The notes below the pieces were generated by a model. That model saw only the letters and a list, made by a program, of their open reading frames with translations. It did no database searches and was not told where the DNA came from. Of a stretch of 64,000 nt of DNA, positions 12,558-61,332 are shown piece after piece. The DNA is from a phage. Positions within the stretch are counted from its first letter, which is position 1. Each line of letters begins with the position of its first letter. The position numbers and the translations under genes are program-made. The stretch lies in NCBI GenBank assembly GCA_036253495.1, contig GCA_036253495.1_4125.1. The stretch is one strand, 5' to 3'.

Positions 12558-12561
12558 CAAA

Positions 12562-13420: not shown

Positions 13421-13436
13421 TTATAAAGGATTATAG

Positions 13437-15335: not shown

Positions 15336-15350
15336 CCATTAGAGGCACAA

Positions 15351-16735
<1,385 letters not shown>

Positions 16736-16739
<4 letters not shown>

Positions 16740-17179: not shown

Positions 17180-17181
17180 TT

Positions 17182-17325: not shown

Positions 17326-17337
17326 TAAGGGGACAAA

Positions 17338-17508: not shown

Positions 17509-17571
17509 CAATATATCGAGAGTGTGTGATAATACTCTCGTCTTTTAATTAAACAAAAAGGTAAAATAAAA

Positions 17572-19436: not shown

Positions 19437-19446
19437 GGGAAAGCGA

Positions 19447-20011: not shown

Positions 20012-20130
20012 GAAGTTGTGGAACAATTTCGAATCCAATGATATAATGTTTTCATCGGCAGATGTTAAAATGCAAATCACTTCCTCAATGATTGAGGGTT
20101 CTATAAAAAAGAAATAAAAGGGTATTAACA

Positions 20131-20340
20131 ATGGCACAAGAAATTAAAGCACAAGTACTAGACGTAACTGATTTTGACCGCACTGTAAACTACATTCAGT
20201 TCCAAATTCACCAAGCGGAAGAAGCACTTGCTCAATTCCACGGTACTGGTGCTAAGCCAATCATGTTCGCTCATCTCATCACTTGGAAGAAAAATCTCCA
20301 AGAAGAACTACACGAACTGCGTAAAGCAAATCGTAAGTAA
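20131..20340 (+). CDS. hypothetical protein
   Basis: ORF with ATG 20131. Confidence 0.5.
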   Translation: MAQEIKAQVLDVTDFDRTVNYIQFQIHQAEEALAQFHGTGAKPIMFAHLITWKKNLQEELHELRKANRK

Positions 20341-20351
20341 TTAGGGTTTAT

Positions 20352-20378
20352 GCCCTGTCCATATGGATGGGGCTTTTT
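20352..20378 (+). terminator. intrinsic terminator
   Basis: Hairpin GCCCTGTCCATATGGATGGGGC followed by TTTTT. Confidence 0.55.
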
Positions 20379-20405
20379 AATCAAAAGTATAGAGGAAAAA
20401 AGAAA

Positions 20406-20945
20406 ATGGGTGTAGAATATTATTTTTTATTTGGATGCCTTAGTGTTCTGGTGTTGATAACAGTAGGATTAATTATTAATACATGCATAAGTGGTTCTAA
20501 ATATTTTCGTTCTTTCCAGTTTCTTATGTCAGCTATGTCATATAATAAAGAAGCTGATACAGCCATTAATCTATTACTAGATAAGACTGAAGCTGGAATA
20601 CTTATTGCGAAATTATCACCATCTGATGACACGATTATGTTTGTCAATCCAAACGATGAAGAAACAACACTTGTAGCAAATCAATATCGCACTAGTCATG
20701 CAGATCCACGTTATGTTAAAGTTCTTAATTCAGAAGGTGAAATCTGGATTGGTTCTAAATACTATGCTTATGGATACATCCATCGTTACTACGGTCAACG
20801 AAAGGAAGAATTTTATAAGAAACGTCCAAGTTTAAATACATTTAAACGTATTCTAAAACTTGAACACGAGTTAAAGAAACCAAGTTCAGAAAACGCAGCA
20901 CCAAATCATGTGCATAAGCGTGATAGTGATATCGTGGAGTTATAA
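20406..20945 (+). CDS. membrane-anchored hypothetical protein
   Basis: ATG 20406 with AGAGGAAAAAAG RBS; N-terminal TM helix. Confidence 0.5.
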   Translation: MGVEYYFLFGCLSVLVLITVGLIINTCISGSKYFRSFQFLMSAMSYNKEADTAINLLLDKTEAGILIAKLSPSDDTIMFVNPNDEETTLVANQYRTSHADPRYVKVLNSEGEIWIGSKYYAYGYIHRYYGQRKEEFYKKRPSLNTFKRILKLEHELKKPSSENAAPNHVHKRDSDIVEL

Positions 20946-21241
20946 TGTCACCAGATGAAGCAAGTAAAGTCCTCGTTGAAGTTCAAAATCGACTTCTACA
21001 CGTAATGGACGCAGTAAAAGATTTACCACAAGGATATCAGTATAAGGTTCGCGAAATGCTTTCTTGTGCTGAAACCGTAGTCTCGATGTATTGTGATGTT
21101 CAACACGGAATTATCCCTGAAGTTCTGAAGAAAGATGTAACAGAAGAACGAGAAATCCCTGAAGAAGTTCAGGTAACACAAGTTGTTAAACAAAAAACAA
21201 TCCTTGATATTAGTGATATCAATCTAGACTTAGGAGATTAA
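20945..21241 (+). CDS. hypothetical protein
   Basis: TAATG overlap. Confidence 0.5.
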   Translation: MSPDEASKVLVEVQNRLLHVMDAVKDLPQGYQYKVREMLSCAETVVSMYCDVQHGIIPEVLKKDVTEEREIPEEVQVTQVVKQKTILDISDINLDLGD

Positions 21242-21243
21242 AA

Positions 21244-21387
21244 ATGAGTTCACAGAAAGTTGATTTGGTTTTAAAACTCCAAGAGATTCAAGCACTTGCA
21301 AAAAATCTCGATGAAAAAAGTACTAAAATGGTAGACGACCTCTGTGCATCTATTTTAGTAGTGTTTGCTGAAGCAGAAAAGAAATAA
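21244..21387 (+). CDS. small hypothetical protein (47 aa)
   Basis: Short ORF between annotated genes. Confidence 0.3.
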   Translation: MSSQKVDLVLKLQEIQALAKNLDEKSTKMVDDLCASILVVFAEAEKK

Positions 21388-21394
21388 AATATAT

Positions 21395-21425
21395 TACCCA
21401 GTACTTAGATACTGGGTATTTTTTT
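21395..21425 (+). terminator. intrinsic terminator
   Basis: Stem TACCCAGT / ACTGGGTA followed by TTTTTTT. Confidence 0.6.
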
Positions 21426-21436
21426 AAGGAAAATTC

Positions 21437-21829
21437 ATGACTGATACTGACTTACAAAAACTCATTGATTACATCTATGAAATGGTTCAAGATAAAAACA
21501 ATATAAATTACATAGCTTCCGGCTCAAAACCAATTGGAAATGTAATGACATATTCTTTGTCTTTGTGGTTACATCAGTACTATAAGGTTGATTGTGTGTA
21601 TTATCGCCCAGATATCAATGCATTTTATTTTGTGAACCCAGCAGTATTGTTTGACCGAACAAAGAAGCTTCCAGATGATGAATCATTTATACCTAGTCCA
21701 TTCTATGTATCCGAATCAGACGAAGACGAGTTCCAAAAAAATACTTCTTTAGAGCGTGATGCGGGATGTATCCCTTATAAACTCAAAGATAAAATTGATT
21801 TCATTGTAGAAGTTATGAAAACATGTTGA
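21437..21829 (+). CDS. FQ-motif paralog family protein (divergent)
   Basis: C-terminal SDEDEFQKNTSLERD module. Confidence 0.5.
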   Translation: MTDTDLQKLIDYIYEMVQDKNNINYIASGSKPIGNVMTYSLSLWLHQYYKVDCVYYRPDINAFYFVNPAVLFDRTKKLPDDESFIPSPFYVSESDEDEFQKNTSLERDAGCIPYKLKDKIDFIVEVMKTC

Positions 21830-21879
21830 TAAGTACAGTGAAACTCTGATATAATACTATGACTTACTAAGGAGAACAT

Positions 21880-22449
21880 ATGAACTTTATTAAATTCAAC
21901 ACATATGAGTCAGAAGCATACTTTAATACAAATAATAAATTTAATATTATTCTTAAAGACGGAACGGTTGTTATCGGAGTATCATTGCTTTCATTTGATG
22001 GCGAAAAACTCAAAACTGTTTATAAATTCACCAATCTTGATGGTGATTACTGGGATACGTCAGATGTATCTAAAATTTGCACACATTATGTATTTGAATC
22101 TATTGAAGTTGGTGATGGCTGGGCATTGACCTGTAATGGTAATAAAGTATTTTCTGGTAACATATTTGGAGTAATTTCCAGTAAAGAAATCGTAGACCAT
22201 CATCTTCATGTTCTCAATAATAACGCCAACACTTATACACCTGATAATATCAAAATTCACGATATTGTAACATACACTGATTATAATGGTTTCAGACATA
22301 AAGCAATCGTAACTGAAGTTAAAAAACCAAAAAATTATTTCGACCACGGTTTAATTGAAGTATATATGGTAGGTGGCGAAAAACAATACTTTGATCATTT
22401 CACTTATACTGGTTGGGATAGATTCCTAACCGTTATTGAGGAATACTAA
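21880..22449 (+). CDS. hypothetical protein
   Basis: AAGGAG RBS upstream of ATG 21880. Confidence 0.55.
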   Translation: MNFIKFNTYESEAYFNTNNKFNIILKDGTVVIGVSLLSFDGEKLKTVYKFTNLDGDYWDTSDVSKICTHYVFESIEVGDGWALTCNGNKVFSGNIFGVISSKEIVDHHLHVLNNNANTYTPDNIKIHDIVTYTDYNGFRHKAIVTEVKKPKNYFDHGLIEVYMVGGEKQYFDHFTYTGWDRFLTVIEEY

Positions 22450-22450
22450 C

Positions 22451-22927
22451 ATGCCGATTCGTGGTGTGCCAGAACCATTAATTGAAGTTATTAAGCATGT
22501 CAATGTTGGAACACGAGAAGTTAATCAGCGACGTGGTAATATATATTACTTTAAAACTACAGGAATGAGTTCTATACAGGTTGTTATTGGCACATCTATT
22601 GCGGTCACGCGTGTTCTTGATGGTAGTACTGACTTCGTTGGATACAATGTACTTACTAATAAAGTAACACATACATATAAATGGAGTGGTTATAAAACCA
22701 TCACATATGAGTTTGACTTAGCTAGAACTGAAGAAGAACGATTTATGTTGAGTACTATTAATCCAGCAAACTATCCTGACCTTGATGCATTTTTGCTAAT
22801 TTTAAAATTGTATAATGAAGCAAATGAGAAAGCTAAAGAGTATGATAGAATCATGTATGAACGTAGAAAAGAACGTTCTCAAAAAAGTTATGATCTGTAT
22901 GAAAGTTACATTCATAGATCCAAATGA
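22451..22927 (+). CDS. FQ-motif paralog family protein (divergent)
   Basis: ATG 22451; C-terminal TEEERFMLSTINPANY module. Confidence 0.5.
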   Translation: MPIRGVPEPLIEVIKHVNVGTREVNQRRGNIYYFKTTGMSSIQVVIGTSIAVTRVLDGSTDFVGYNVLTNKVTHTYKWSGYKTITYEFDLARTEEERFMLSTINPANYPDLDAFLLILKLYNEANEKAKEYDRIMYERRKERSQKSYDLYESYIHRSK

Positions 22928-22965
22928 AATAAATAGTTACCTATAGATTAATCTAAGGAGTAACT

Positions 22966-23316
22966 ATGTTTAAAAGTAATCTTAAAGTAGAATTAATTAA
23001 TAACGAAGGTCAACGTTGGAAAGTTCTAGAAGATCTAGAATACGAGTATAACGGTATTAAAATTGTTGTTCCCGCAGGTTTCAAAACTGATTTTGCAAGC
23101 GTCCCACGTATTCGTGGTATATTTGAACTAGTCGGTAATATGGGTCACGCCGCAGCAACAATACATGACTACTTGTATAGTACTGGTATGCTATCCCGTA
23201 AAGATAGTGATAAGGTGCTACTACAGGCTCTACGTGCTACTGAAGTTGGTAAGCCACGTAGTATGATTATGTATGCTGGTGTTCGTGTATTCGGTTGGTT
23301 GTTTTACAAAAAATAA
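22966..23316 (+). CDS. hypothetical protein, DUF1353-like
   Basis: AAGGAG RBS; GFKTDFASVPR...IHDYLY pattern. Confidence 0.5.
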   Translation: MFKSNLKVELINNEGQRWKVLEDLEYEYNGIKIVVPAGFKTDFASVPRIRGIFELVGNMGHAAATIHDYLYSTGMLSRKDSDKVLLQALRATEVGKPRSMIMYAGVRVFGWLFYKK

Positions 23317-23324
23317 AACTATTT

Positions 23325-23358
23325 ATGAGTACTGCTTGCAGTACTCATTTTTTTTTTA
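23325..23358 (+). terminator. intrinsic terminator
   Basis: 10-bp stem ATGAGTACTG / CAGTACTCAT followed by T10. Confidence 0.65.
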
Positions 23359-23371
23359 CTCCGAGGTACAT

Positions 23372-23587
23372 ATGAAAGTTATTATTAATCCAGCATCAAA
23401 CTTTTTTGGTGAGGTTTTCGGTGCAGACATTATTGTGCATAATTTTCCACGAATTGAAATCGACGGAATTGAAGTCCAACGATATGGCAACCTGTACTAT
23501 GTAATAGATGAAAATGGTTCTATTGTACACGACAGTGCATTCTTTACCGAAGAAGAGATGAAACACTTGATAGTACTGGACAAATAA
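23372..23587 (+). CDS. hypothetical protein
   Basis: ATG 23372. Confidence 0.45.
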   Translation: MKVIINPASNFFGEVFGADIIVHNFPRIEIDGIEVQRYGNLYYVIDENGSIVHDSAFFTEEEMKHLIVLDK

Positions 23588-23588
23588 A

Positions 23589-23774
23589 ATGACACTAGAT
23601 GAATGGCATAAAAGAAACGATAAGCTGTATGAAAATGATATTTTCTTCTTCGCATTCGGTGGTCTTGGAAGTATTTTACGTGATAGTGATGATTACTTCA
23701 ATTCGATCATTAGCTATTATGATTGCTATGGGACTATGTACGCCATAGCACGAACAACGGGATGTTACAAATGA
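23589..23774 (+). CDS. MTxxEW mini-family protein (divergent member)
   Basis: Begins MTLDEWHKRNDKLY. Confidence 0.45.
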   Translation: MTLDEWHKRNDKLYENDIFFFAFGGLGSILRDSDDYFNSIISYYDCYGTMYAIARTTGCYK

Positions 23775-23950
23775 CACATCAAGAATGGTTAGATGAATTA
23801 AAATTCAAACATGATCATTTTGGCTTTGGTGTACGCCAGGGTCATTATGATATTTTAAAAGATAAGAACAAGTTTAAATCATTTATCTTGGATGATGATA
23901 GTAATCGCTGGTTCATCTATGAGCTTGCGGTTAGAGGTAAAAAAAAATGA
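23771..23950 (+). CDS. MTHEEW mini-family protein
   Basis: ATGA overlap; MTHQEWLDELKFKHDHFG...WFIYELAVRGKKK. Confidence 0.5.
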   Translation: MTHQEWLDELKFKHDHFGFGVRQGHYDILKDKNKFKSFILDDDSNRWFIYELAVRGKKK

Positions 23951-23999
23951 CTAGTACTGATATATATGCTATTCTTTTGTTTTAATCAGGAGAACAATA

Positions 24000-24499
24000 A
24001 TGCTCATTACGCATGTACCGGAAAGTATTACTGAAATTTTAAATAAAATTAATGTTAATGAGTTTGAACGAACAGTTCGAAAACAGGGCACTTATCACTA
24101 TAAGCACAAAGATGGTGAACATCGAATAAGCTTAGATCAGAATTATCAAACTTTAACAATTACAATGGTTACTCGCTGGAATTTCGTTCGTAAAGACACT
24201 ATTATCTGTGATTTTGGTAAAAATCTACTTAGAAAATGTTTCTCTGAAACAAATGGCATCTATCCAAACCCGAATAGAATTTTTACATATCGATACATCA
24301 CAGATGAAGATGTACATTTCCAAGAGAGTTTGGTATGCGATAATAAGTACTTTCCCGCATTTTCTGATAATTTGAAGTTAAAAGAACTATATAACTATTT
24401 CTTAAATGACAATATCCTGTGGGATGAAGAATTAAAAAAACGACAGATAGAACGTGAAAAGAAAAAAGTATGGACTGGCTCACATTGGATGCAACGTAA

Positions 24500-24503
<4 letters not shown>
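24000..24503 (+). CDS. FQ-motif paralog family protein
   Basis: AGGAGA RBS; C-terminal DEDVHFQESLVCDNKYF module. Confidence 0.55.
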
Positions 24504-24687
<184 letters not shown>

Positions 24688-24688
24688 G

Positions 24689-24825
<137 letters not shown>

Positions 24826-24838
24826 CGAGGAATCCAAA

Positions 24839-25036
24839 GTGACTAAAGCAGAACTTGTAGCATTATTGGAATCATATCCCGATGATGCATGTATTGAAGT
24901 TGTTCATAGTGCGAGACATTTTGACATTGAAGATGTAGTACGTTATAATGACAAAGGTGTACTCATCATGGAACTATGTATTGGTGAAATGAAAACTGTA
25001 CCCGAATCAGAAAAACGTAAAAATAGTAAACCGTAA
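24839..25036 (+). CDS. hypothetical protein
   Basis: GTG start 24839 after ACGAGG RBS. Confidence 0.45.
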   Translation: MTKAELVALLESYPDDACIEVVHSARHFDIEDVVRYNDKGVLIMELCIGEMKTVPESEKRKNSKP

Positions 25037-25046
25037 GGAAAATAAA

Positions 25047-25265
25047 ATGGAATCTACTCTATTAGAAGTTATTAACTCATTAAACGCTGGCGACAATGTT
25101 CAAGTACTCCTACAGGGATACCGTGTAAAAGGTTCAGTAGTTTTAGTTAATGACACCACTGTTGTTGTAACTGAAACTAACCCGTTTGACAGTAATGAAC
25201 TTGCTAATATCCATATTGATATTAAAAGTATTATTGGTGTTGGTGTAACTAAACCACAAGAATAA
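25047..25265 (+). CDS. hypothetical protein
   Basis: AAGGAAAA RBS upstream of ATG 25047. Confidence 0.5.
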   Translation: MESTLLEVINSLNAGDNVQVLLQGYRVKGSVVLVNDTTVVVTETNPFDSNELANIHIDIKSIIGVGVTKPQE

Positions 25266-25286
25266 CAATTGTTATTGGGGATTACT

Positions 25287-25559
25287 ATGCATTTTGAAAA
25301 ATTCAATACAAATCGTAACACACGCATTGACGTTCTTTATGAAACACAAGACTCAATAAGCATTCGTACACGTAGTGGTGATGTATATCATGACTGTACT
25401 ATTGGTTGGGAACAGGGAAGAACACGTAGTGCAGAATTCGATAACTATCGCTTCTACCAAGGGGACACCACAATCTGGCCTGAAGACGTAGAAGATATTG
25501 CGATTGAAGATGAACATAAAGATGAATTTATAAAATTTAATCCCGAAACCGAATCATAA
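25287..25559 (+). CDS. hypothetical protein
   Basis: ATG 25287. Confidence 0.45.
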   Translation: MHFEKFNTNRNTRIDVLYETQDSISIRTRSGDVYHDCTIGWEQGRTRSAEFDNYRFYQGDTTIWPEDVEDIAIEDEHKDEFIKFNPETES

Positions 25560-25599
25560 ATATTGGAACAGACTATAAAGATGTGATATAATTATTATC

Positions 25600-26018
25600 A
25601 TGATAACAAAATACATGGAACGTAAAATGTGGGGAAACGAATATAAATCAAAACAAGGAAATATTGGAGTTGCTCGTGCAATAGATTACTATGTCACAAA
25701 TGGTTATTCAGTGTCTATACCCATGAATGATACACAATCATATGACTTGATAGTTGATGATAATATTAAATTGTATAGAGTATCAGTAAAACAACATCAT
25801 ATAAAGCACCATCTGGAAATTATAATGTTCAACTAAAAAATAGTGGTGGTTCTAGCGGTAAAAGTGTTATACGAAATTTTGATAAAACATCGTGCGACAT
25901 ACTGTTTGTGTTGTGTGATAACAACGACATATATATCATCCCAATTGATGACATTGATGCACATTCAGCACTTACATTAACTGAAGAACGTAAGAAATAT
26001 ATTAGAAAATTATATTAA
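25600..26018 (+). pseudogene. PD-(D/E)xK / Hjc-like nuclease gene split by a frameshift at an A4 run (25788-25791)
   Basis: Frame 1 ends ...YDLIVDDNIKLYRVSVK; frame 0 continues TTSYKAPSGNYNVQLKNSGG...DILFVLCDNNDIYIIPIDD to stop at 26018. Confidence 0.5.
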
Positions 26019-26025
26019 AAAATAT

Positions 26026-27714
<1,689 letters not shown>

Positions 27715-27717
27715 TTC

Positions 27718-27873
<156 letters not shown>

Positions 27874-27901
27874 CAAAACGAAATGATAATAGGAAATTAA
27901 A

Positions 27902-28087
27902 ATGCAACTTTTAATTCTTTCAATATTGTATATTATTATAATGGTTCCTATATCAATACGTTTAATTATACTTGAACGATTTTTATCGAAACATGGAAAT
28001 AGATCTATGATATTTGTACCAATCGGGCTTATATTGTTTGGTATATTTGCATTTATAATGGGAATTAACGCTACATTCATTTCATAG
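27902..28087 (+). CDS. small membrane protein
   Basis: ORF with two hydrophobic helices. Confidence 0.45.
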   Translation: MQLLILSILYIIIMVPISIRLIILERFLSKHGNRSMIFVPIGLILFGIFAFIMGINATFIS

Positions 28088-28096
28088 GAAACAAAT

Positions 28097-28578
<482 letters not shown>

Positions 28579-28585
28579 AAGAACG

Positions 28586-28618
<33 letters not shown>

Positions 28619-28619
28619 C

Positions 28620-28675
<56 letters not shown>

Positions 28676-28676
28676 T

Positions 28677-28807
<131 letters not shown>

Positions 28808-28808
28808 A

Positions 28809-28883
<75 letters not shown>

Positions 28884-28926
28884 GGTTCAAGAAGAAAACT
28901 GGGGTTTTTAACCTAACGAGGTCAAT

Positions 28927-29069
<143 letters not shown>

Positions 29070-29070
29070 A

Positions 29071-29201
<131 letters not shown>

Positions 29202-39563: not shown

Positions 39564-39988
39564 TGAGAACATACTATAAACTATTACTCGCTCCCTTTTC
39601 ATTTGGTATTTTATGTCTAATCGACGTATTATGCACAAAGTATTCGATTAGTACAGTACTTAATCCAGCGTGGTTTACTATTGCTATTGTTGGATACTGT
39701 CTGTGTGCGGGTATGGCTGCTCTTATTACGTTACTAACAATTGCAATGGATAATGACGAGAAAGATAAAAACAGCTTTGCGAATGACTTTGGGTGGAAAA
39801 CGATCAGTTCAGTAACTATTGTACCATTTGCATTACTGACAGTTTATTTCATTCAAATGGGTGAGATCATTCCTGGTGTTGCATCATCAATACTTTTGTT
39901 AATGACAATAGTTGTTCGTTCACGACAAAATTCAATAATCCAAGAGTTTCTTGAACGAGAGGCAAGGGAAGGAACAAAAACATCTTGA
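39563..39988 (+). CDS. membrane protein
   Basis: TAATG overlap; several hydrophobic helices. Confidence 0.5.
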   Translation: MRTYYKLLLAPFSFGILCLIDVLCTKYSISTVLNPAWFTIAIVGYCLCAGMAALITLLTIAMDNDEKDKNSFANDFGWKTISSVTIVPFALLTVYFIQMGEIIPGVASSILLLMTIVVRSRQNSIIQEFLEREAREGTKTS

Positions 39989-40042
39989 CATAAAATGTGT
40001 TAAGGGATATAATTATTTTATCAAAACAAAGGAGGGACACAT

Positions 40043-40294
40043 ATGAATCTCGATGTGGTGAAATCATTAACTGAAGCTTTACAGAAAAATGAAGTTCAAT
40101 GTCAAGAACTACGTGACACTATTAAGGTTGAATACGCTCGACTTCAAGGTATGTTACAAGAATCAGAATGGGTAGTTACTAAAAGCATCGAAGGTATCTA
40201 CAAAGATATCGAATCAATGTTCAATAAGAAAAGTAAGATTGAATCAGATTCTTTTAACAAACGTAAAGAACTAAATGCAGTTTTAGGTATCTAA
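40043..40294 (+). CDS. hypothetical protein
   Basis: AAGGAGGG RBS. Confidence 0.5.
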   Translation: MNLDVVKSLTEALQKNEVQCQELRDTIKVEYARLQGMLQESEWVVTKSIEGIYKDIESMFNKKSKIESDSFNKRKELNAVLGI

Positions 40295-40298
40295 GTAC

Positions 40299-40327
40299 TT
40301 GACAGTACTGAAATATAGGAGTACAAT
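40299..40327 (+). promoter_or_regulatory. sigma70-type promoter (TTGACA-17-TACAAT) with -10 inside palindrome GGAGTACA-A-TGTACTCC
   Basis: TTGACA 40299-40304, TACAAT 40322-40327; palindrome 40317-40333 resembles the terminator stem at 4601. Confidence 0.5.
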
Positions 40328-40367
40328 GTACTCCTACTTTAATTGAAAACCAAAAAGGAAAAACACA

Positions 40368-40643
40368 ATGAACTCTATTCTAGTAGCAGTAAACCTAGTT
40401 GCTTCTCCGTCTTTTGATTTTAAAAAAGTTATTTCTAATAATCTTAAAAACATTTGCCCTGATACTGAACTTACTTTTTGTGTATTCGATTCTGAAAAAG
40501 TTACTAAAGTAGATCTTAATTATCTCATGAACGATGTTAAGAGTGTTCAAGGTAAAACTAATTTAGATGTAGTACGTTCTGTTGCTGACGACTACGATGA
40601 TGCTCTGATCATTTCTGAATCTTTTGAAGAGGGTGTACTGTGA
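40368..40643 (+). CDS. hypothetical protein
   Basis: AAAAGGAAAAA RBS. Confidence 0.5.
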   Translation: MNSILVAVNLVASPSFDFKKVISNNLKNICPDTELTFCVFDSEKVTKVDLNYLMNDVKSVQGKTNLDVVRSVADDYDDALIISESFEEGVL

Positions 40644-41107
40644 ATAAATTAGTTCAATGGGTAGAAAAAACTAAGGTCTATCCACCGTCTGAATTGTTTT
40701 TCCAAGCAGACTCTAAGCAAGCCAAGGCAGAAAAACGCGTTGTAGCCATTTGTGAAGACCTTTATAAACTTGAAGTACATACTCTTAGTGATATGCATAC
40801 TGCGTTCACAGTGCTTGCCAACGCAGCTAAACGCGATATTCATAACATGAAGATGAAGTACATTGAAGAACTATGCGGTGTGCTTGCATTCCATGTTGAT
40901 TATTCGGTTAATGCATTAGATGCTATGCATAAGAAAGATCCTATCCTCCAAGCTTATTACAAAGGATGGTCCGTAAAAGCTAAAGAGCTAAAGGATGAAA
41001 TCAAAGCATTACTTATTGAATCATTCCCTGATATTGATAAGGCAATGTTACTTTCGGAGATGCAGTACTATTATGATTCTGAAAAAGATAAGGTACTTTC
41101 TAAGTAA
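40640..41107 (+). CDS. hypothetical protein
   Basis: GTG start overlapping upstream stop (GTGA). Confidence 0.5.
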   Translation: MNKLVQWVEKTKVYPPSELFFQADSKQAKAEKRVVAICEDLYKLEVHTLSDMHTAFTVLANAAKRDIHNMKMKYIEELCGVLAFHVDYSVNALDAMHKKDPILQAYYKGWSVKAKELKDEIKALLIESFPDIDKAMLLSEMQYYYDSEKDKVLSK

Positions 41108-41504
41108 ACTAATTCTAAGTAAGCCCAAAGTACAAATACAAGCTCAAGAGGCTTTTGATATATACGAGGCATTGAATAATTGTAATTATGATTTACTCAA
41201 TAAGCATTGTAGATCCAAAGTAGCTGTTGATTTGATTTGTGAACAAATGACAGTTAGTAACTTTTCAAAAAATTACAACATTCACTATTTTGGATTTGAT
41301 GGTTCACCTACAAAATTTGATTATAATTATGCTTATGCAGAATTGGTTAAGAGTAAGGAAAACATCAAAATAACTGAATTCATTGCCTTGTATTTTTTCA
41401 CAAAACTTGGTATAGTAACTGGATGTAAAGATCCCTTCCCATTTGATAAGGTATTGAAAGGAAGAGAACTTGATATATATTCCGCATTCTTAGATAAGGT
41501 GTAG
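41073..41504 (+). CDS. hypothetical protein
   Basis: In-frame ATG 41073; overlaps upstream gene by 35 nt; start uncertain. Confidence 0.4.
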   Translation: MILKKIRYFLSKLILSKPKVQIQAQEAFDIYEALNNCNYDLLNKHCRSKVAVDLICEQMTVSNFSKNYNIHYFGFDGSPTKFDYNYAYAELVKSKENIKITEFIALYFFTKLGIVTGCKDPFPFDKVLKGRELDIYSAFLDKV

Positions 41505-41505
41505 A

Positions 41506-42003
41506 ATGACTACAGTATATGTTGACAAGCGTGTTGGATTATTGCTCACTGATTCACGAGTAACAACCACTACTGAGAGGTACTTTCTCGGATTATTCCC
41601 GTTAAAACCAAAAAAACAATATGGTGTAGTTACTCAAAAATCATTATACATTCATGATCGTCTGTTTAGTGCCGCAGGTTCAGTGAATGAAATCAATAAA
41701 GTATTGATGTATTTGATATATGGTGATATAGTACTGCCCAGTAGAAAAGAGAACTGCCATTGTGTCTTGTTGTCCAAAGATTATTGTATTCACTTAGGAA
41801 CAAAGAACGGGAAGTTTTTTAAGTACCTTGAGTTCATGCATGAGGAATATGTATTCTTCATGGGAAGTGGTGGAGAGTACATGGTTGATGCTGCTGTGCA
41901 TGAGAACCAAGACACACTACTTCAAAAAATATTCAGTACTTTCAAAGAGGTAAAAAACCACGATGAATATACTGACGACAATATTAATGTATACCAATTT
42001 TGA
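41506..42003 (+). CDS. hypothetical protein
   Basis: ORF with ATG 41506. Confidence 0.5.
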   Translation: MTTVYVDKRVGLLLTDSRVTTTTERYFLGLFPLKPKKQYGVVTQKSLYIHDRLFSAAGSVNEINKVLMYLIYGDIVLPSRKENCHCVLLSKDYCIHLGTKNGKFFKYLEFMHEEYVFFMGSGGEYMVDAAVHENQDTLLQKIFSTFKEVKNHDEYTDDNINVYQF

Positions 42004-42024
42004 TTTTTTCATTAGGAGAAGTAA

Positions 42025-42987
42025 GTGAAGAAACTAGACTTAAACGCAATTTCCGAAGAAGTACTGGATGAATGTTTTGCGAATGAAGAAGTCAATCCAT
42101 TGGAAGCAATTGAACCATCAGAAGTTATTGAAGATGATATTCCACATAAAGTTCGTAGTAAAAGTAACATTAGTCTCAAGCGTCCAGTAGGTGTGACTAA
42201 TGAATCCATCATCGAAGAGATTCGTGCTGGAATTAATGTAAAAAAGAACACTGACCTATTACTTCGTTATAACTATGGTATGATCGTTGATGTTGCTTCA
42301 AAGTGTACATGTTATATTCCGTTTGAAGATAAAATTGCATATGGTGTAGAAGGTTTTATGCGAGCACTTAAAACCTTTGATCTTAGTAAGAATGTCAAAT
42401 TCATTACATATGCAACAACGTCCGTTTATATGACTATGTATAATGAAAGTTCAGATGCAAATTACATGGTGTACTTACCACGTTATATGAGCGTTCATAA
42501 CATCCAAGTACGTCGATTTAATGAATCATATCAACGTGAACACGGTAAGCGACCTACACCAGAATTAATCTCTGAGAGTACTGGTATCGAGCTTCAGCAC
42601 GTTAAGAACTGTTTGTTATACCAGAATGCATATACGACTCTTGATGCACAACTGGGTTCAGATTCAGACGGAACCCTTGGGGATATTCTGAGTTCATCTG
42701 CTCGTGATTATAACCTTAATGTTGATAGCATTTGTAATCCATTACGTTATGCAATCACAGAAATCATTGACGAATTGAGTACTAAAGAACGAGAAATTAT
42801 CATGCGTGTTCATGGTCTGGGGGATTACAAAGCAGAAACCCTTCGTGAAATTTCTGATAATGGATATGTTGATGATAAAGGAAACATTGTTAAGTCCCGT
42901 TCATCTGTGCACCGAAAATATAGTGAAGCTATTCAAAAGCTTAAAAAAATAGTACTTGAAAAAGGGTACGAATACGAAGATTTCTAA
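42025..42987 (+). CDS. sigma-70 family RNA polymerase sigma factor-like protein
   Basis: AGGAGA RBS, GTG start; region-2-like LLLRYNYGMIVDVASK...FMRALKTFDLSKNVKFITYATTSVYMT; region-4-like TKEREIIMRVHGLGD...ETLREIS...KYSEAIQKLKK. Confidence 0.7.
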   Translation: MKKLDLNAISEEVLDECFANEEVNPLEAIEPSEVIEDDIPHKVRSKSNISLKRPVGVTNESIIEEIRAGINVKKNTDLLLRYNYGMIVDVASKCTCYIPFEDKIAYGVEGFMRALKTFDLSKNVKFITYATTSVYMTMYNESSDANYMVYLPRYMSVHNIQVRRFNESYQREHGKRPTPELISESTGIELQHVKNCLLYQNAYTTLDAQLGSDSDGTLGDILSSSARDYNLNVDSICNPLRYAITEIIDELSTKEREIIMRVHGLGDYKAETLREISDNGYVDDKGNIVKSRSSVHRKYSEAIQKLKKIVLEKGYEYEDF

Positions 42988-42994
42988 AGAACAA

Positions 42995-43021
42995 GGGTTG
43001 ACTTAGGTCAGCCCTTTTTTT
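42995..43021 (+). terminator. intrinsic terminator
   Basis: Stem GGGTTGAC / GTCAGCCC with loop TTAG, followed by T7. Confidence 0.7.
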
Positions 43022-43545
43022 ATGGGACAAAATGGATGTTCATGATACAATGATATTGTACAATTCTGTTGGCATGGATGACATGAACCTGATCCACTCG
43101 AAAATGTAGAGGGCAGTTGAGCAGTCCAGCAGTGCGAAGTGCAGAAGAAACCCGTCAGATGTGGGCATATTATGAACCCCTCACGGCAATGCGGCACTAT
43201 AAAGAACCACGTTAGGATGGCTGGTGGTTCCTCGATAGACATATAAGGATAACACCTTACAAATTATCTAAGGGAGAGTTATCAAATTTTGTACAGGAAA
43301 GTTGCGTCCAAAATTTGAGTACTCACATTAAGTATTTGATTGCATAGATACTTAATGAAGATACACTATGTTTAAAAGTGTAGACCGTCATATGAAACTG
43401 AAGTAGAGAGAAACAGGATGACCCGCTTTCGTACTCATTAAGAGTAATCTTCAATGCAATAGCTCTGATACCATCAGCGTCAAATTCCCCTCCCAGCGGG
43501 GGGAAGAAAAATCCCTTCCTCAAATCCCGTCAATATTAAAAGTCC

Positions 43546-43574
43546 TTGACAGTTATTAATCATTCGCGTAGAAT
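43546..43574 (+). promoter_or_regulatory. sigma70-type promoter (TTGACA-17-TAGAAT)
   Basis: TTGACA 43546-43551, TAGAAT 43569-43574. Confidence 0.5.
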
Positions 43575-43638
43575 ACGTAGTATTAGAAGCGAACAGACAT
43601 CTCGAAGAGATGGATGACTAACTATTAAGGAACATTCA

Positions 43639-43848
43639 ATGAATACTACAATCTTTTTAGTAGTTGCTCTTTCAATGCAATCCGGTGTACAAATTACCCC
43701 TATGAATTCATTAAACCAATGTTTTTCTGTACGTGATAGTACATACGAACAAGTAAACAAAAATTCTTGGATGACAGTTAGTGAAGAACAAATGTGGTGT
43801 TACAAAAGTGATATTAAAGCGAAATTTATTGTAGGACAAACTCAATGA
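43639..43848 (+). CDS. secreted hypothetical protein (signal peptide)
   Basis: N-terminal hydrophobic leader. Confidence 0.45.
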   Translation: MNTTIFLVVALSMQSGVQITPMNSLNQCFSVRDSTYEQVNKNSWMTVSEEQMWCYKSDIKAKFIVGQTQ

Positions 43849-44039
43849 TTTATCGAGTGAGGTTTGAAGTTTGTAAAATTGTTTTCAATAGCAAAGGTGA
43901 AGCCTCACTCGATGAAACTCTGCACATATATAATCTCCAATTTAGGGCAAAAACAGAAGCTGATGCATTAGTAAACATGTTTAATTTCAACCATAGGTGC
44001 GGGTATCATTTAGTAAGAGTTATAGAGGTTAAAAAGTAA
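43845..44039 (+). CDS. hypothetical protein
   Basis: ATGA overlap. Confidence 0.45.
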   Translation: MIYRVRFEVCKIVFNSKGEASLDETLHIYNLQFRAKTEADALVNMFNFNHRCGYHLVRVIEVKK

Positions 44040-44069
44040 TCACCGAATGCAGTGAAGAGGAAATCTAAA

Positions 44070-44864
44070 ATGAGTACTATCGATGAATTGATTCGACGGA
44101 ATTCAAAATATTACCAACCATCAGAAATTGTGGATAATATTACTAAATCTGAGTTTGGACCTAATACTCGCAAACTCATTCATGTAATGTCTCGTGACGG
44201 CTTTAAATGTGATTGTTGTGGTGAATCCAATGTAGTATTCACTTTACATAAGCACAGTACTAAAGAACGTTATAAATTCAGACCTTATGTACTTAAAGGG
44301 AAACGTCTTGTACGCATGACGTTAGACCATAATGTACTGGACTGTCTCCAGGGTGGTAATGATAAAGAGAACATGACTGCACTGTGTGAGGATTGTAATG
44401 CCTTACGCCAGCATAAGTTCGCAGAGTACAGCGAGTTTAAGTACTGGTATCATAATGCAGACCGTTCAATTGAGCCTAATGTAAACTACTGCTTCATTGA
44501 GTACATCAAGAATGCAAAAGATACATACATTCTTAAATCCATGTCTCCGATTACAGTGTTTCCTGAGAATCTATTCAGTACTATGGAGCGTGATTTCAAG
44601 CGTGGTATCATCAATGCATTCAAGCACTTAGACAAAGGTATCAAGCACTTTGATGTTGAATGTTTAAATTCAGGTATGAATCATTTAGTACAAATTTACA
44701 TGAAATCGTTTATAGGTATTGACAGTGCACGACTACCAGTATATAATTACTTTATTGAAAGCGTAGAAGGTGAATCACTTCGTGATTATGGTGAAAGATT
44801 TAATAAGAAAGTTTTCACTGCAATAGCAAATGAGATTCATTACTATAAACCATATGTAATTTAA
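44070..44864 (+). CDS. HNH endonuclease-like protein
   Basis: CDCCGE ... DHNVLDCLQGGNDKENMTALCEDCN pattern (Cys pairs around His/Asn). Confidence 0.55.
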   Translation: MSTIDELIRRNSKYYQPSEIVDNITKSEFGPNTRKLIHVMSRDGFKCDCCGESNVVFTLHKHSTKERYKFRPYVLKGKRLVRMTLDHNVLDCLQGGNDKENMTALCEDCNALRQHKFAEYSEFKYWYHNADRSIEPNVNYCFIEYIKNAKDTYILKSMSPITVFPENLFSTMERDFKRGIINAFKHLDKGIKHFDVECLNSGMNHLVQIYMKSFIGIDSARLPVYNYFIESVEGESLRDYGERFNKKVFTAIANEIHYYKPYVI

Positions 44865-45433: not shown

Positions 45434-45461
45434 TTGACAGAAGATATCAGTACTGTATAAT
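45434..45461 (+). promoter_or_regulatory. sigma70-type promoter with GTACTG-TATAAT extended -10
   Basis: TTGACA 45434-45439, TATAAT 45456-45461. Confidence 0.6.
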
Positions 45462-45506
45462 GTTTATATCAAACGAAATCCACTTTAACAAATGATAGGA
45501 AATATT

Positions 45507-45785
45507 ATGTCTTTTACCAAAGAAGAACGTGACCTTATTAAAAAAGCAATCTGGTTTTATGCTAATGAAGGGGAGTGCGATGAAGAAAAAGCACGTGAAC
45601 TGTGTAATATCCTTGAGCAGAAACAAGAACTGAAAGTGTATCGTATCCGTGTTTTGGATGAAGGGGATCGTATTGTCCTAGCTGAAACAAAAGAAGAAGC
45701 AGAACAAATCTTCACTGATAAAAACGAAAATCCACATTGGATGGAAGAAGTCTGTGAAGTAAAAAAAGGTACTTATATCGATTGA
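45507..45785 (+). CDS. hypothetical protein
   Basis: ATG 45507 with AGGA RBS. Confidence 0.5.
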   Translation: MSFTKEERDLIKKAIWFYANEGECDEEKARELCNILEQKQELKVYRIRVLDEGDRIVLAETKEEAEQIFTDKNENPHWMEEVCEVKKGTYID

Positions 45786-51596: not shown

Positions 51597-51788
51597 ATGT
51601 TGATTTATCAATGTGATAACATTCGTGTTATACAGCATCCCTACTTACAAATCTTTGATGTGCAGCAGTATATGGAAGGTGATGACCCAAGAACCTATGG
51701 TCGTAAGTATGATTACTTCACTGTAAAGCAGTGTCGTAACATCAAAGAAGTACGACAATTAGTTCAAGAACTTCAAAATAAAGGTTGA
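51597..51788 (+). CDS. hypothetical protein
   Basis: ATG 51597 after GAGGACT RBS; track start 51567 is a non-ATG codon. Confidence 0.45.
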   Translation: MLIYQCDNIRVIQHPYLQIFDVQQYMEGDDPRTYGRKYDYFTVKQCRNIKEVRQLVQELQNKG

Positions 51789-51814
51789 CTTCGGTCAGCC
51801 TTTTTTGTTATAAT
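51783..51814 (+). promoter_or_regulatory. terminator-promoter composite cassette
   Basis: Hairpin GGTTGAC-TTCG-GTCAGCC plus T6; embedded TTGACT 51785-51790 and TATAAT 51809-51814. Confidence 0.65.
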
Positions 51815-56072: not shown

Positions 56073-56104
56073 GGTTGACTTCGGTCAGCCTTTTTTGCTA
56101 TAAT
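56073..56104 (+). promoter_or_regulatory. terminator-promoter composite cassette
   Basis: Hairpin GGTTGAC-TTCG-GTCAGCC plus T6; TTGACT 56075-56080 and TATAAT 56099-56104. Confidence 0.65.
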
Positions 56105-57013: not shown

Positions 57014-57041
57014 GAAAAGTATTTGACAAACTCAACTAGTA
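57014..57041 (+). promoter_or_regulatory. sigma70-type promoter with GTACTG-TATAAT extended -10
   Basis: TTGACA 57014-57019, TATAAT 57036-57041. Confidence 0.6.
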
Positions 57042-57097
57042 CTGTATAATGTTTATCAAGGGGATGAACTTCTCATCCCTACAATCGAGGAACTACC

Positions 57098-58512: not shown

Positions 58513-58597
58513 TAAGTTTATGGAAATTGTTTTAATCGTTGCATTTGTTACATTAGTATGTACTACCATTTAATATATTTTACGAGGATAATGTGAA

Positions 58598-58927
58598 ATG
58601 AAAAAACTACTAACTATTTTAGTACTATCTGCTATTACGTTGACGGCTGGATGTACCGTTAAAAAAGATTTATTCCCTGTTGGTGGAAGTAAAGCTGATG
58701 GTGTTATTAGGCTTGGATACACATTCGACCAGCGATCTGAAATTCCATTAATTGATTTGGAACAGGGATTGTATGTAGCTACTAAACGATGCCAAAAGTG
58801 GGGATATTCAGGTGCTGAAATTTTTGGTGGCTCCACAACAATGTGTTCTGACCAACGTCCACTGGGGTGTGTTGCAACAAATGTCACATATGAATATCAA
58901 TGTACTGGTGACTTAAAAGAAAAATAA
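58598..58927 (+). CDS. putative lipoprotein
   Basis: GAGGATAA RBS; signal peptide with lipobox-like LTAGC. Confidence 0.55.
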   Translation: MKKLLTILVLSAITLTAGCTVKKDLFPVGGSKADGVIRLGYTFDQRSEIPLIDLEQGLYVATKRCQKWGYSGAEIFGGSTTMCSDQRPLGCVATNVTYEYQCTGDLKEK

Positions 58928-58937
58928 TCTTTTACAT

Positions 58938-58970
58938 GGGTTGACTTCGTTCAGCCCTTTTTGCTATAAT
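58938..58970 (+). promoter_or_regulatory. terminator-promoter composite cassette
   Basis: Hairpin GGGTTGA...TCAGCCC plus T5; TTGACT 58941-58946 and TATAAT 58965-58970. Confidence 0.65.
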
Positions 58971-59666: not shown

Positions 59667-59699
59667 GGGTTGACTTCGGTCAGCCCTTTTTGCTATAAT
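59667..59699 (+). promoter_or_regulatory. terminator-promoter composite cassette
   Basis: Hairpin GGGTTGAC-TTCG-GTCAGCCC plus T5; TTGACT 59670-59675 and TATAAT 59694-59699. Confidence 0.7.
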
Positions 59700-59725: not shown

Positions 59726-59965
59726 ATGAAACTATCTTTTATACGTTTAGCAGAATTCTTCGGTACTGATATAATTACTTTACAACAAATTGCAGACAAT
59801 ACTTCATTAAGCACACAAGAAGTACTTGACTTAGATGTGATAGAGTGTGATAATACTTCTATCGATTATAAAGAAGGTCTTGTCGAAAAAGATAAGATTC
59901 AGGCTAAGATTAATGGTGCTGGACGGGTTCAGTACTGGAAAGGGGTTTTAAGTAATGCGTGTTGA
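59726..59965 (+). CDS. hypothetical protein
   Basis: GAGG RBS. Confidence 0.5.
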   Translation: MKLSFIRLAEFFGTDIITLQQIADNTSLSTQEVLDLDVIECDNTSIDYKEGLVEKDKIQAKINGAGRVQYWKGVLSNAC

Positions 59966-61289
59966 TATTAAAGTACCTTTTAAATGTGAACCACTGAAAT
60001 TTGTCCAAGATTATGAAATATCTAAAACTATCGAATTTAGTGAAACCGCTTCAAAACTTGATATTAGTAGGAAAATTTTAGGTGAAAAGTATCCAGATGT
60101 AATATGGGATGATTTCAATCCATATAATATGGAAAAAGATGAAATGTGTAAAGACGAAATTATTGGCTTTGTTCGTATGGGAGTTCAAAATCTAAAATAT
60201 TATGCATATATATGTCAAAAATGCTCGACAAATTCAAAACAAAATGGTTTAGGTATATTTTTTACATTAAAAAGATATATTAAAAATAAAATTACATGTA
60301 TGTGCTCAAAAACACCACTATATACAAATTATCAACGAACTATACAACTTCATAATAAATCTATAAGTTTAGGTTATGTGTTTATTGGATATAATAAAGA
60401 AAAACAAATAACTTCGGATGCTAAAATAAAACTAGGATGTTATAATCATGGTATGTGGGATACTATAACAATAAATTCGTATAACACCAACTCACGCGGC
60501 TGTTCAAAATGTGCTGGTGTTCATTCACCATCACAGGAAGAAGCAAATGAAAAAATAAAACAAATTTGTAATGAAAATAAATTAGTATTTCAACCTTTCC
60601 TATATAAAAATAATAAAACTAAAATTTTTGTAAGATGTTTGGTATGTAATGAATCATGGGAGTCAAACTATTTTAAACTTTATACCATGAAATATGGTTG
60701 CCAACGTTGTGTAGGAACAAAAAAGTTAACTACTGAGATTTCTACAGGAATTGTATCAGATTATTGTACAAAATATAAGTTGACTTTCATTCCATTTGTG
60801 TATGATAATAATAAGATGAAAATATCTCTACGTTGTGATATTTGTTCACATGAATGGATAACACCATTCAATGGTATTACTAATAGAATGGGGTGTCCAA
60901 GATGTAATCCAACTGAAGCAATACGTATTTCTAAAGATTTAGATCCATTAATAGATGATTTTCAGCCGGAAAAGAAATTCCTTGAACTTGGAAAGATGCG
61001 ATTTGATAGATTCAGTCAACGATTAAACATTCTGTTTGAATATGATGGGGAACAACACTTTATTTCCAATAGGGTTTGGCATTCTACTACATCTAAGTTT
61101 GAATCTTCTCGTGAACGTGACAGTATAAAAACAGAATACGCAATAAAAAATGGATATAACTTCATTCGTATTGCGTATTATGAAGACCATATTGGAGCAT
61201 TGAAATCTTTCCTTAAACTCATTGAAGAGAATCCAGGAAAGCAAATCGTACAGATCTATGGTGATGTTCAAATCTTAGACAAGAAATAA
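59955..61289 (+). CDS. putative homing-type endonuclease with tandem Zn-ribbon repeats and C-terminal Vsr/DUF559-like nuclease domain
   Basis: Repeated CxxC modules (CQKC, CSKC, CQRC, CPRC) in about 45-aa repeats; C-terminal FDRFSQRLNILFEYDGEQHF...RDSIKTEYAIKNGYNFIRIAY. Confidence 0.55.
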   Translation: MRVDIKVPFKCEPLKFVQDYEISKTIEFSETASKLDISRKILGEKYPDVIWDDFNPYNMEKDEMCKDEIIGFVRMGVQNLKYYAYICQKCSTNSKQNGLGIFFTLKRYIKNKITCMCSKTPLYTNYQRTIQLHNKSISLGYVFIGYNKEKQITSDAKIKLGCYNHGMWDTITINSYNTNSRGCSKCAGVHSPSQEEANEKIKQICNENKLVFQPFLYKNNKTKIFVRCLVCNESWESNYFKLYTMKYGCQRCVGTKKLTTEISTGIVSDYCTKYKLTFIPFVYDNNKMKISLRCDICSHEWITPFNGITNRMGCPRCNPTEAIRISKDLDPLIDDFQPEKKFLELGKMRFDRFSQRLNILFEYDGEQHFISNRVWHSTTSKFESSRERDSIKTEYAIKNGYNFIRIAYYEDHIGALKSFLKLIEENPGKQIVQIYGDVQILDKK

Positions 61290-61299
61290 CAATACAAAA

Positions 61300-61332
61300 G
61301 GGTTGACTTCGGTCAGCCCTTTTTGCTATAAT
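61300..61332 (+). promoter_or_regulatory. terminator-promoter composite cassette
   Basis: Hairpin GGGTTGAC-TTCG-GTCAGCCC plus T5; TTGACT 61303-61308 and TATAAT 61327-61332. Confidence 0.7.

Follow-up and report, generated by a model that had tools for sequence, protein, structure and literature searches.

The stretch of phage DNA described here comprises 64,000 nucleotides (nt) of contig GCA_036253495.1_4125.1 (NCBI GenBank assembly GCA_036253495.1), the whole of which is called the window below, and its central subject is an open reading frame (ORF) for a sigma-70-family protein, the orthologue of A4_181 of Escherichia phage A4, together with the promoters and the structured RNA that lie around it (Table 1). 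Five small ORFs, all in PHROG families of unknown function, form one transcription unit with the sigma gene, which they precede, and the promoter at 39985..40013 is the closest strong one on the 5' side of this operon. Since the gene stands at the end of an early operon that is headed by a perfect host sigma70 promoter and closed by an intrinsic terminator, its transcription by the host holoenzyme is to be expected as soon as infection begins. A preliminary description of this DNA had reported the ORF with a GTG start and an AGGAGA ribosome-binding site, all of which are present, and had assigned it to an early-type gene block, in keeping with the small + strand ORFs and the 41 near-perfect sigma70 promoters found on that strand. 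The terminator behind the sigma gene is also a variant of a repeated module in which terminator and promoter are fused; in the modules reading GGTTGACTTCGGTCAGCCCTTTTTTGCTATAAT the -35 hexamer TTGACT forms part of the stem of the terminator, and the T run leads on to TATAAT.

Around the sigma gene (41000-44000) the sequence is 99.6% identical to Escherichia phage A4 (ON286972.1; megablast), an Asteriusvirus of 355.5 kb with E. coli LF82 as host, and over the whole window the identity is 98.5-99.2% with few indels. On this similarity the source phage is a jumbo myovirus of the RaK2/121Q type and not T4, so that the T4 frame in which the locus had been described gives way to a RaK2-like jumbo coliphage about 99% identical to it. 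For the motif and promoter scans reported below, the A4 genome was joined from nine segments.

Table 1. Positions of the sigma gene, its signals and the other features of the window
Feature	Position	Strand	Remark
Candidate promoter 1 of the preliminary description, TTGACT-N16-TATAAT	26630..26657	+	host sigma70 type; GTACTG in spacer
Candidate 2, TTGACT-N16-TATAAT	27039..27066	+	tRNA gene starts 10 nt on
tRNA gene	27076..27148	+	Rfam 56 bits; missing from A4 feature table
Host-type early promoter, TTGACA-N17-TATAAT	39985..40013	+	sigma70 consensus, 12/12
Five co-oriented small ORFs 5' of the sigma gene	40043..42003	+	same transcription unit
Second host-type promoter within the sigma operon, TTGACA-N17-TACAAT	40299..40327	+	11/12
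Shine-Dalgarno AGGAGA	42014..42019	+	5 nt before GTG start
Sigma-70-family gene (orthologue of A4_181)	42025..42987	+	320 residues, GTG start
Sigma domain 2, residues 79-141	42259..42447	+	regions 2.1-2.4
Sigma domain 3, residues 161-225	42505..42699	+	Pfam Sigma70_r3 above cut-off
Sigma domain 4, residues 248-307	42766..42945	+	
8-residue insertion D282-K289	42868..42891	+	in turn of region 4.2 helix-turn-helix
Intrinsic terminator closing the sigma operon	42993..43023	+	10-bp stem, then T run
Class-M promoter	43024..43051	+	GGGACA 43024-29, 13 nt, TGA 43043-45, TACAAT 43046-51; heads RNA gene
Conserved core of structured non-coding RNA of about 450 nt	43086..43531	+	transcript probably starts near 43058
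Host-type promoter TTGACA-N17-TAGAAT	43546..43574	+	serves next early genes
HNH endonuclease ORF	44052-44864	+	PHROG 35175 at 2e-148
Candidate 3, TTGACA-N16-TATAAT	45434..45461	+	12/12
Candidate 4, TTGACA-N16-TATAAT	57023..57050	+	12/12
Terminator-promoter fusion modules	51785-51814, 56075-56104, 58941-58970, 59670-59699, 61303-61332		read GGTTGACTTCGGTCAGCCCTTTTTTGCTATAAT

A divergent three-domain sigma factor

Profile searches, pairwise alignment and structure prediction agree that ORF 42025..42987 encodes a divergent sigma-70-family protein with three domains. Among the Pfam models, Sigma70_r3 passes clearly (residues 161-225, E 2.9e-11, 43.7 bits for a cut-off of 25.3), Sigma70_r2 falls 0.6 bits short (residues 81-141, E 5.1e-5, 23.4 bits for a cut-off of 24), and Sigma70_r4 is weak and below its cut-off (residues 248-278, E 2.3e-3, 17.8 bits against 24.1), spanning only region 4.1 and the first helix. 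The only PHROG matched by the ORF is PHROG 351, 'RNA polymerase sigma factor' (2.4e-50), and the NCBIfam model RpoD_Cterm, whose match takes in the sigma2 domain as the PDB SigA alignments also do, scores 2.3e-26. When PDB sequences were searched with phmmer only sigma factors were returned, headed by cyanobacterial SigA (3e-18) and including E. coli sigma70 at about 1e-13; in BLASTP, residues 79-307 align with residues 379-599 of E. coli sigma70 (22% identity, 2e-17), where the alignment reaches residue 599 and opens a gap of eight residues at the turn of region 4.2. An AlphaFold model built with 17 homologues predicts helical domains at residues 50-142, 153-200 and 240-312 with a predicted local distance difference test (pLDDT) of 80-90, joined by linkers of low confidence, and the helices modelled in domain 4 (253-263, 273-279 and 292-312) exceed a pLDDT of 80. 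All of the top 50 Foldseek matches of this model in PDB are sigma factors, the best being the sigmaS chains 6omf_F and 5ipl_F (E 4.8e-11). The domains that define membership of the sigma-70 family, sigma2, sigma3 and sigma4 with its helix-turn-helix, are thus all present. The sigma-70 call of the preliminary description is borne out for regions 2, 3 and 4 by profiles, BLASTP and fold, and the region-2-like and region-4-like segments that it quoted lie within the Sigma70_r2 and Sigma70_r4 matches; the profile search that it had named as the check puts region 3 above the cut-off and detects regions 2 and 4 just below theirs.

E. coli RpoD and RpoS are the best sequence and fold matches, and regions 2.1-4.2 are collinear between them and the phage protein, which differs from both in having neither region 1.1 nor the non-conserved region, in the replacement of promoter-reading residues and in an insertion in the helix-turn-helix. 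Its 50 N-terminal residues are acidic and carry a conserved MKKLDLNxIxEEVLDECF motif. Three other classes were considered and ruled out for this ORF: an extracytoplasmic function (ECF, group 4) sigma by the clear sigma3 domain (TIGR02937 gives 40.1 for a cut-off of 42.9), a late sigma of the gp55 type by the match to PHROG 351 only, and a primary-like sigma of group 1/2 by sub-cut-off scores and by the loss of YATWWIRQAI and of the residues that read the -35 element. The curated NCBIfam equivalog models for RpoD, RpoS and SigA stay far below their cut-offs, at 92.8 against 354 bits for TIGR02393 and 71.8 against 378.7 for RpoS.

The departures from sigma70 concern residues whose promoter-reading roles are known for Q437, T440, H455, E458, E585, R588, R584, W433 and W434 (PMC2613000). 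Relative to E. coli RpoD, the phage sigma keeps the pocket for A-11 (F419, E420 as D, and Y430) as well as F427 and N383. The tryptophan pair that melts DNA in sigma70, W433W434, is replaced by TS, and Q437 and T440, which read position -12, by M and Y; H455 and E458, which read the -14 base pair of TGn, have become Y and V, and E585 and R588, which read -33, have become S and H, so that among R584, E585 and R588 only the equivalent of R584 (position -31) is kept. In regions 2.3-2.4 the phage protein has TYATTSVYMTMY in place of the conserved YATWWIRQAI, and its recognition helix reads S-R-S-S-V-H-R-K-Y where sigma70 has T-R-E-R-I-R-Q-I-E. Region 2.2 retains its hydrophobic pattern, D..I..G..G(F/L)M.A...F, with different residues at the equivalents of Q406, E407 and N409. 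Within the insertion D282-K289, modelled as a beta-hairpin, D283 and G286 are invariant, and across the clade R297 and Y299 of the recognition helix are invariant and H296 nearly so. Because these distinguishing features persist in relatives of 99% to 33% identity, the phage sigma is, on this pattern of conservation, a distinct and selected subfamily rather than a captured host rpoD. The protein is therefore not 'canonical-looking', as it had been called, with the equivalents of W433/W434, Q437, T440, E585 and R588 lost and eight residues inserted in region 4.2.

Losses of this kind would also suit a sigma mimic that serves host shut-off by competing for core polymerase or by acting within another complex, without promoter-specific initiation: the melting residues W433 and W434 are gone, the core contacts Q406, E407 and N409 of region 2.2 are replaced, and the helix-turn-helix carries an insertion. 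Yet the clade conserves each of the three DNA-facing domains and keeps the A-11 pocket, and R297, Y299 and very nearly H296 do not vary, a pattern that fits a factor reading DNA rather than a pure competitor, and we consider the mimic improbable.

The sigma family of RaK2-like jumbo phages

The sigma gene itself is already known, being annotated in GenBank and discussed in comparative papers. All RaK2-like jumbo phages have an orthologue, and full-length ones were found by tblastn in 71 phage records, most of them annotated as sigma factors, from jumbo phages of Escherichia, Klebsiella, Salmonella, Erwinia, Yersinia, Serratia, Pectobacterium, Cronobacter and Xanthomonas; identity within the family spans 99% to 33%, and 33 residues are invariant. 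The named orthologues A4_181, 121Q gp167, RaK2 ORF244, GAP32 and CBB_513 (PHROG 351) range from 99.7% to 33% identity, and the window protein is one residue apart from A4_181, which the GenBank record of A4 already names a 'sigma-70 family RNA polymerase sigma factor'. The sigmas of RaK2-like phages share their length, domain order, region 4.2 insertion and early-block position with the window protein, in which the full length, the LDLNxIxEEVLDECF motif, the insertion with D283 and G286 and the early block that mark this group are all found. The authors of the CBB genome paper described CBB_513 as a likely takeover factor in an early region and listed, beside a gp55-like gene, a 'divergent RpoD-like' promoter and late motifs of the form ATAAATA (PMC5259590); according to Iyer et al., every 'group 2' jumbo phage encodes a minimal sigma, an RpoD-like sigma or both (PMC7824862). 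These sigmas were named as likely host-takeover factors both in that 2021 comparison of jumbo phages and in the CBB paper (PMC7824862, PMC5259590). Our literature search found neither experimental work on any orthologue nor a paper tying these sigmas to a specific promoter class.

Two further A4 proteins carry sigma annotations. A4_187 (45492-45785 of the window, + strand, 92-97 residues), the second 'sigma-70 family' protein of the GenBank record, was rejected as a sigma: it has no Pfam match and falls in PHROG 24324, of unknown function, and its sigma annotation looks unsupported. A4_529, a 'putative sigma factor (sigma 54)' encoded outside the window, is a homologue of the S30AE/HPF ribosome-hibernation factors (Pfam PF02482, 3.8e-10).

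Host-type promoters and the GTACTG word

Promoters of the type TTGACA-N16-18-TATAAT, with at most one mismatch in 12, number 41 on the + strand of the window and none on the - strand, against an expected 3.3, and across A4 such sites cluster at 0-90 kb and 280-340 kb, the early regions of small ORFs. A repeated immediate-early array lies in A4 at 6000-25000, outside the window, and consists of about 19 near-identical promoter modules, AAAAAGTACTTGCA-N17-TATAAT; behind each come a conserved leader, TTTACATCGAGGGGGG, and an ORF of very small size.

The preliminary description had proposed that the phage sigma reads promoters with GTACTG immediately upstream of TATAAT. The word is real and enriched: GTACTGTATAAT occurs in the window at four exact sites, beginning at 26646, 27055, 45450 and 57039, and at two more with one mismatch, six against an expected 0.75. 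The positions 26630, 27039 and 45434 given for these promoters are sound, being the starts of -35 hexamers, and the fourth, 57014, has to be corrected, as its hexamer is at 57023. Every GTACTGTATAAT site, the four at 26630, 27039, 45434 and 57023 included, has TTGAC(A/T) precisely 16 nt 5' of TATAAT; the proposed targets are therefore host sigma70 consensus promoters, four of the 41 in the window, and GTACTG is merely part of their spacer. A host-type promoter must fire before any phage protein exists, and because one of this same type drives the sigma gene itself, the GTACTG-TATAAT sites are host-read early promoters and not targets of the phage sigma, which does not have the residues that read TTGACA. 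GTACTG belongs moreover to the palindrome CAGTACTG, the most over-represented word of the genome, about 60-fold in excess and found in ORFs as well (A4 has 224 copies where 3.7 are expected, and the window has 41 where 0.6 are); two of its copies, at 26644-26651 and 45448-45455, lie inside the promoters in question. The idea that the phage sigma reads these promoters is thus very improbable. The three most enriched 6-mers genome-wide are CAGTAC, GTACTG and AGTACT, in ORFs and spacers alike, and the excess of the palindrome is the opposite of restriction avoidance.

A further promoter class

A search for motifs upstream of A4 genes returned, beside the host type and an ATAAATA motif like that of T4 late promoters, a class T(G/A)GGACA-N13-TGn-TATAAT, here called class M. 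The expression [GA]GACA-N13-TGnTAnnnT matches A4 at 23 sites, every one of them on the + strand, against an expected 2.8 +/- 1.0; only one, at 43024-43051, falls inside the window. The geometry is that of a sigma70 promoter with a different -35 hexamer and an obligatory TGn: an xGGACA -35 is coupled to TGA or TGC ahead of TATAAT, a coupling that TTGACA promoters do not have. Downstream of class-M sites in A4 lie genes for SSB (two sites), primase, topoisomerase II, exonuclease, the DNA polymerase region, polynucleotide kinase, a nudix hydrolase and Clp/ClpA-like proteins. One further site, TGGGACA-N13-TGCTATAAT, adjoins A4_588, the gp55-like late sigma encoded outside the window (PHROG 12791 at 1e-151 and PHROG 234 at 3e-17). 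No further promoter class that the phage sigma could serve was found in the A4 motif searches.

Outside A4, class-M architecture recurs in a distant genus: the 'Promoter 1' reported for CBB, TGAAACG/TGGAACG-N13-TGnTATAAT, shares it and includes a site before the gp55-like gene of that phage (PMC5259590 Table S6). Across the clades, 31 of 35 distinct copies of the RNA element described below stand behind a readable promoter of class-M architecture, two more lack only TGn, and TTGACA occurs as the -35 hexamer in none of the 35 and in none of the 23 class-M promoters of A4. The base at -33 is G in Asteriusvirus and in the L084 clade, whose sigmas have Ser or Thr at the residue aligned with E585, and A where that residue is Ala (the CBB/BF/GAP32/Yersinia type) or Gly (RaK2, from a single promoter). 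A sharper rule, in which G at -33 goes with His at the equivalent of R588, is broken by RaK2 and was given up for this weaker correlation with the E585 residue.

A structured RNA adjoining the sigma gene

The gap of 650 bp without ORFs on the 3' side of the sigma gene contains first the class-M promoter and then the RNA element. A4 has four paralogues of this RNA, at 65, 125, 205 and 321 kb (the first three span 65073-65641, 125681-126302 and 205545-206114). Each immediately follows a class-M promoter, and their loci are the four class-M sites of A4 with no nearby ORF. By blastn the element occurs in 71 records, with three to five copies per genome, and these records divide among genera exactly as the sigma records do: Escherichia 33, Klebsiella 10, Salmonella 8, Erwinia 8, Yersinia 4, and Serratia, Pectobacterium, Cronobacter and Xanthomonas 2 each. 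Copies in 121Q-type phages are 94% identical, compared with about 80% for the flanking genes, and in CBB and BF the RNA still has about 70% identity over 440 nt, compared with 33% for the sigma protein. The order of sigma gene, class-M promoter and RNA is kept in A4, 121Q, UE-S1 and RaK2; in RaK2 the RNA lies directly 3' of the sigma gene and overlaps ORF245, which is probably spurious. The element is unannotated in all of the GenBank records matched.

A consensus fold computed with RNAalifold from 34 distinct copies has 64 pairs, 39 of them with compensatory changes. Standard pairs occupy 96.8% of cells, compared with 38-45% when the partners are slid, and the covariation score is 0.535, against 0.06-0.11 for slid partners and 0.19 for shuffled alignments, none of 500 shuffles reaching 0.535. 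Rfam 15 has no family that matches the RNA, whether at the gathering threshold, at E<=5 for the window or at E<=10 for eight copies taken from different phages. RNase P was considered on the strength of a visual resemblance of ACAG..AACCCGCUU to its conserved regions, which no model match backs, and was set aside, as were ncRNA001 and ncRNA002 of the related Pseudomonas jumbo phage PA5oct, known from RNA-seq, to which nhmmer gives no match. No paper describing the element was found in the literature search, and as far as Rfam and that literature go the structured RNA adjoining the sigma gene is an undescribed family. Many of its unpaired blocks are invariant, which suggests a ribozyme or the scaffold of a ribonucleoprotein, and the dispersed copies, the putative middle promoter and an invariant G6 run would allow a role as primer RNA or at an origin. 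The GC skew of A4 tracks gene orientation only, with no inflection at the four RNA copies.

A proposed transcription cascade

The explanation that we favour, with a confidence slightly better than even, is that the window protein is a sigma specific to RaK2-like phages, that its targets are the class-M promoters and that it forms the second of three stages. Host RNA polymerase holoenzyme would transcribe the phage sigma gene from the early operon at the start of infection; the phage sigma would then bind host core RNA polymerase in place of sigma70 and steer it to a 'middle' class, T(G/A)GGACA-N13-TGn-TATAAT, which precedes genes of replication, recombination and nucleotide metabolism, the gene for the gp55-like late sigma and the four RNA copies. 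The cascade would thus lead from host sigma70 (early) through the phage sigma-70-like factor (middle) to the gp55-like sigma acting at ATAAATA (late). Class M may be assigned to the phage sigma because its conserved -35 element is never TTGACA and yet lies at the canonical spacing for sigma4, perfect TTGACA being found for early genes; because the phage sigma departs from sigma70 at precisely the residues that specify -35 and -12; because the -33 base co-varies with the residue aligned with E585; and because AsiA and MotA are undetectable and no other promoter class was found. A wider proposal, to which we would give somewhat less than even credence, makes the phage sigma the dedicated reader of a middle class common to the clade, with a -35 code that co-evolved with the region 4.2 helix and a regulon that includes the late sigma and the multi-copy structured RNA.

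Several considerations tell against this assignment. The pairing of the sigma with its promoters is inferred by comparing sequences. Class M carries a perfect TATAAT, TGn and four of the six -35 bases, the features of a good extended -10 promoter on which E. coli sigma70 could act by itself, and the example from RaK2, TTGAAC-N17, lies near the sigma70 consensus. TGn is invariant in class M, yet the residues that read it are lost from the phage sigma (H455->Y, E458->V), in an alignment that the model covers with low confidence (pLDDT <50 at residues 143-154). The co-variation at -33 draws on few independent lineages, with one promoter for RaK2, and the 'middle' timing is deduced from gene functions only. 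Homologues of AsiA and MotA were not detected among A4 ORFs of at least 40 residues (best E 0.9 and 1.0) in a single-sequence search of low sensitivity.

The same observations feed the rival explanation that regions 2 and 3 of host sigma70 read class M as extended -10 promoters, either unaided or through a phage activator bound at -35, the phage sigma being otherwise employed. TGn and a perfect TATAAT suit H455 and E458, which sigma70 has and the phage protein does not, the RaK2 promoter is again in its favour, and T4 middle promoters work likewise. Such promoters, however, have no need of a fixed non-consensus -35 at the exact sigma4 spacing, which is found in 23 A4 promoters and behind 31 of 35 RNA copies, and the hexamer never drifts to TTGACA even though the same genomes use perfect TTGACA elsewhere; nor did AsiA/MotA homologues or a fourth promoter class that would occupy the phage sigma emerge. 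We regard reading by sigma70 as rather unlikely.

Under the wider proposal the RNA might act as a ribozyme or scaffold, associate with RNA polymerase or with the sigma, or be a primer RNA resembling ColE1 RNA II or those of T4 origins. The adjacent RNA is the most unexpected item at this locus, and if the proposal is true it would represent a new large class of phage RNA whose expression is wired to a sigma switch.

Comparison with other phage systems

The proposed scheme shares its three stages with the programme of T4. The middle promoters of T4 combine a sigma70-type, often extended, -10 element with a non-host element near -30/-35, much as class M does, and its late promoters, of the TATAAATA type, are read by gp55; this phage likewise has a gp55-like sigma, encoded outside the window, and ATAAATA motifs. 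The difference lies in the middle stage, for which T4 uses AsiA and MotA, whereas A4, with no detectable homologue of either, has a full sigma-70-like protein. The preliminary description had set a sigma-70 protein against the AsiA/MotA and gp55 of T4 and suggested a different takeover mechanism; the gp55-like A4_588 is encoded in A4 as well, so the sigma-70-like protein adds to it and does not replace it. Homologues of gp33 and gp45 were not found in CBB by its authors (PMC5259590), and a gp33 orthologue was reported in group 2 phages by Iyer et al. (PMC7824862).

A parallel in logic is offered by other phages. The A4-type arrangement, in which an early sigma-70-family product would displace the host primary sigma and read promoters specific to the phage, would follow the logic of gp28 of Bacillus phage SPO1 and gp36 of coliphage phiEco32, sigma-70-family phage factors that retarget host core polymerase to middle or late promoters (cited in PMC13401047, PMC7318152). 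Those two proteins are small, with two domains or very divergent, and their promoters are unlike those of the host, whereas the window protein is a full three-domain factor like RpoD and RpoS, and the putative class-M promoters keep the host geometry and TATAAT, differing mainly in the -35 hexamer and TGn.

What the analysis adds to the known gene is a testable wiring diagram for RaK2-like jumbo phages, with host-type early promoters, candidate middle promoters whose -35 element is specific to the clade, and T4-like late promoters. Members of this group are under study as candidate therapeutic phages, and in the literature searched their transcription programme is uncharacterised. The A4-type and CBB-type variants of the sigma4 helix (SRSSVHRKY and SKATLSRRY) and of the -35 element could offer a compact model for the evolution of sigma specificity, and the A4/CBB sigma-promoter pair could serve as a source of orthogonal promoters in E. 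coli.

Other features of the window

On the 3' side of the sigma gene, the HNH endonuclease ORF falls in a segment (44090-44609) that the otherwise 99%-identical A4 does not have and that is probably a mobile homing-endonuclease insertion. Further indels between the window and A4 are found at 24770-26292, 58515-58937 and 59959-61287. The tRNA gene behind the second GTACTG promoter is part of a tRNA cluster at 26026-29190.

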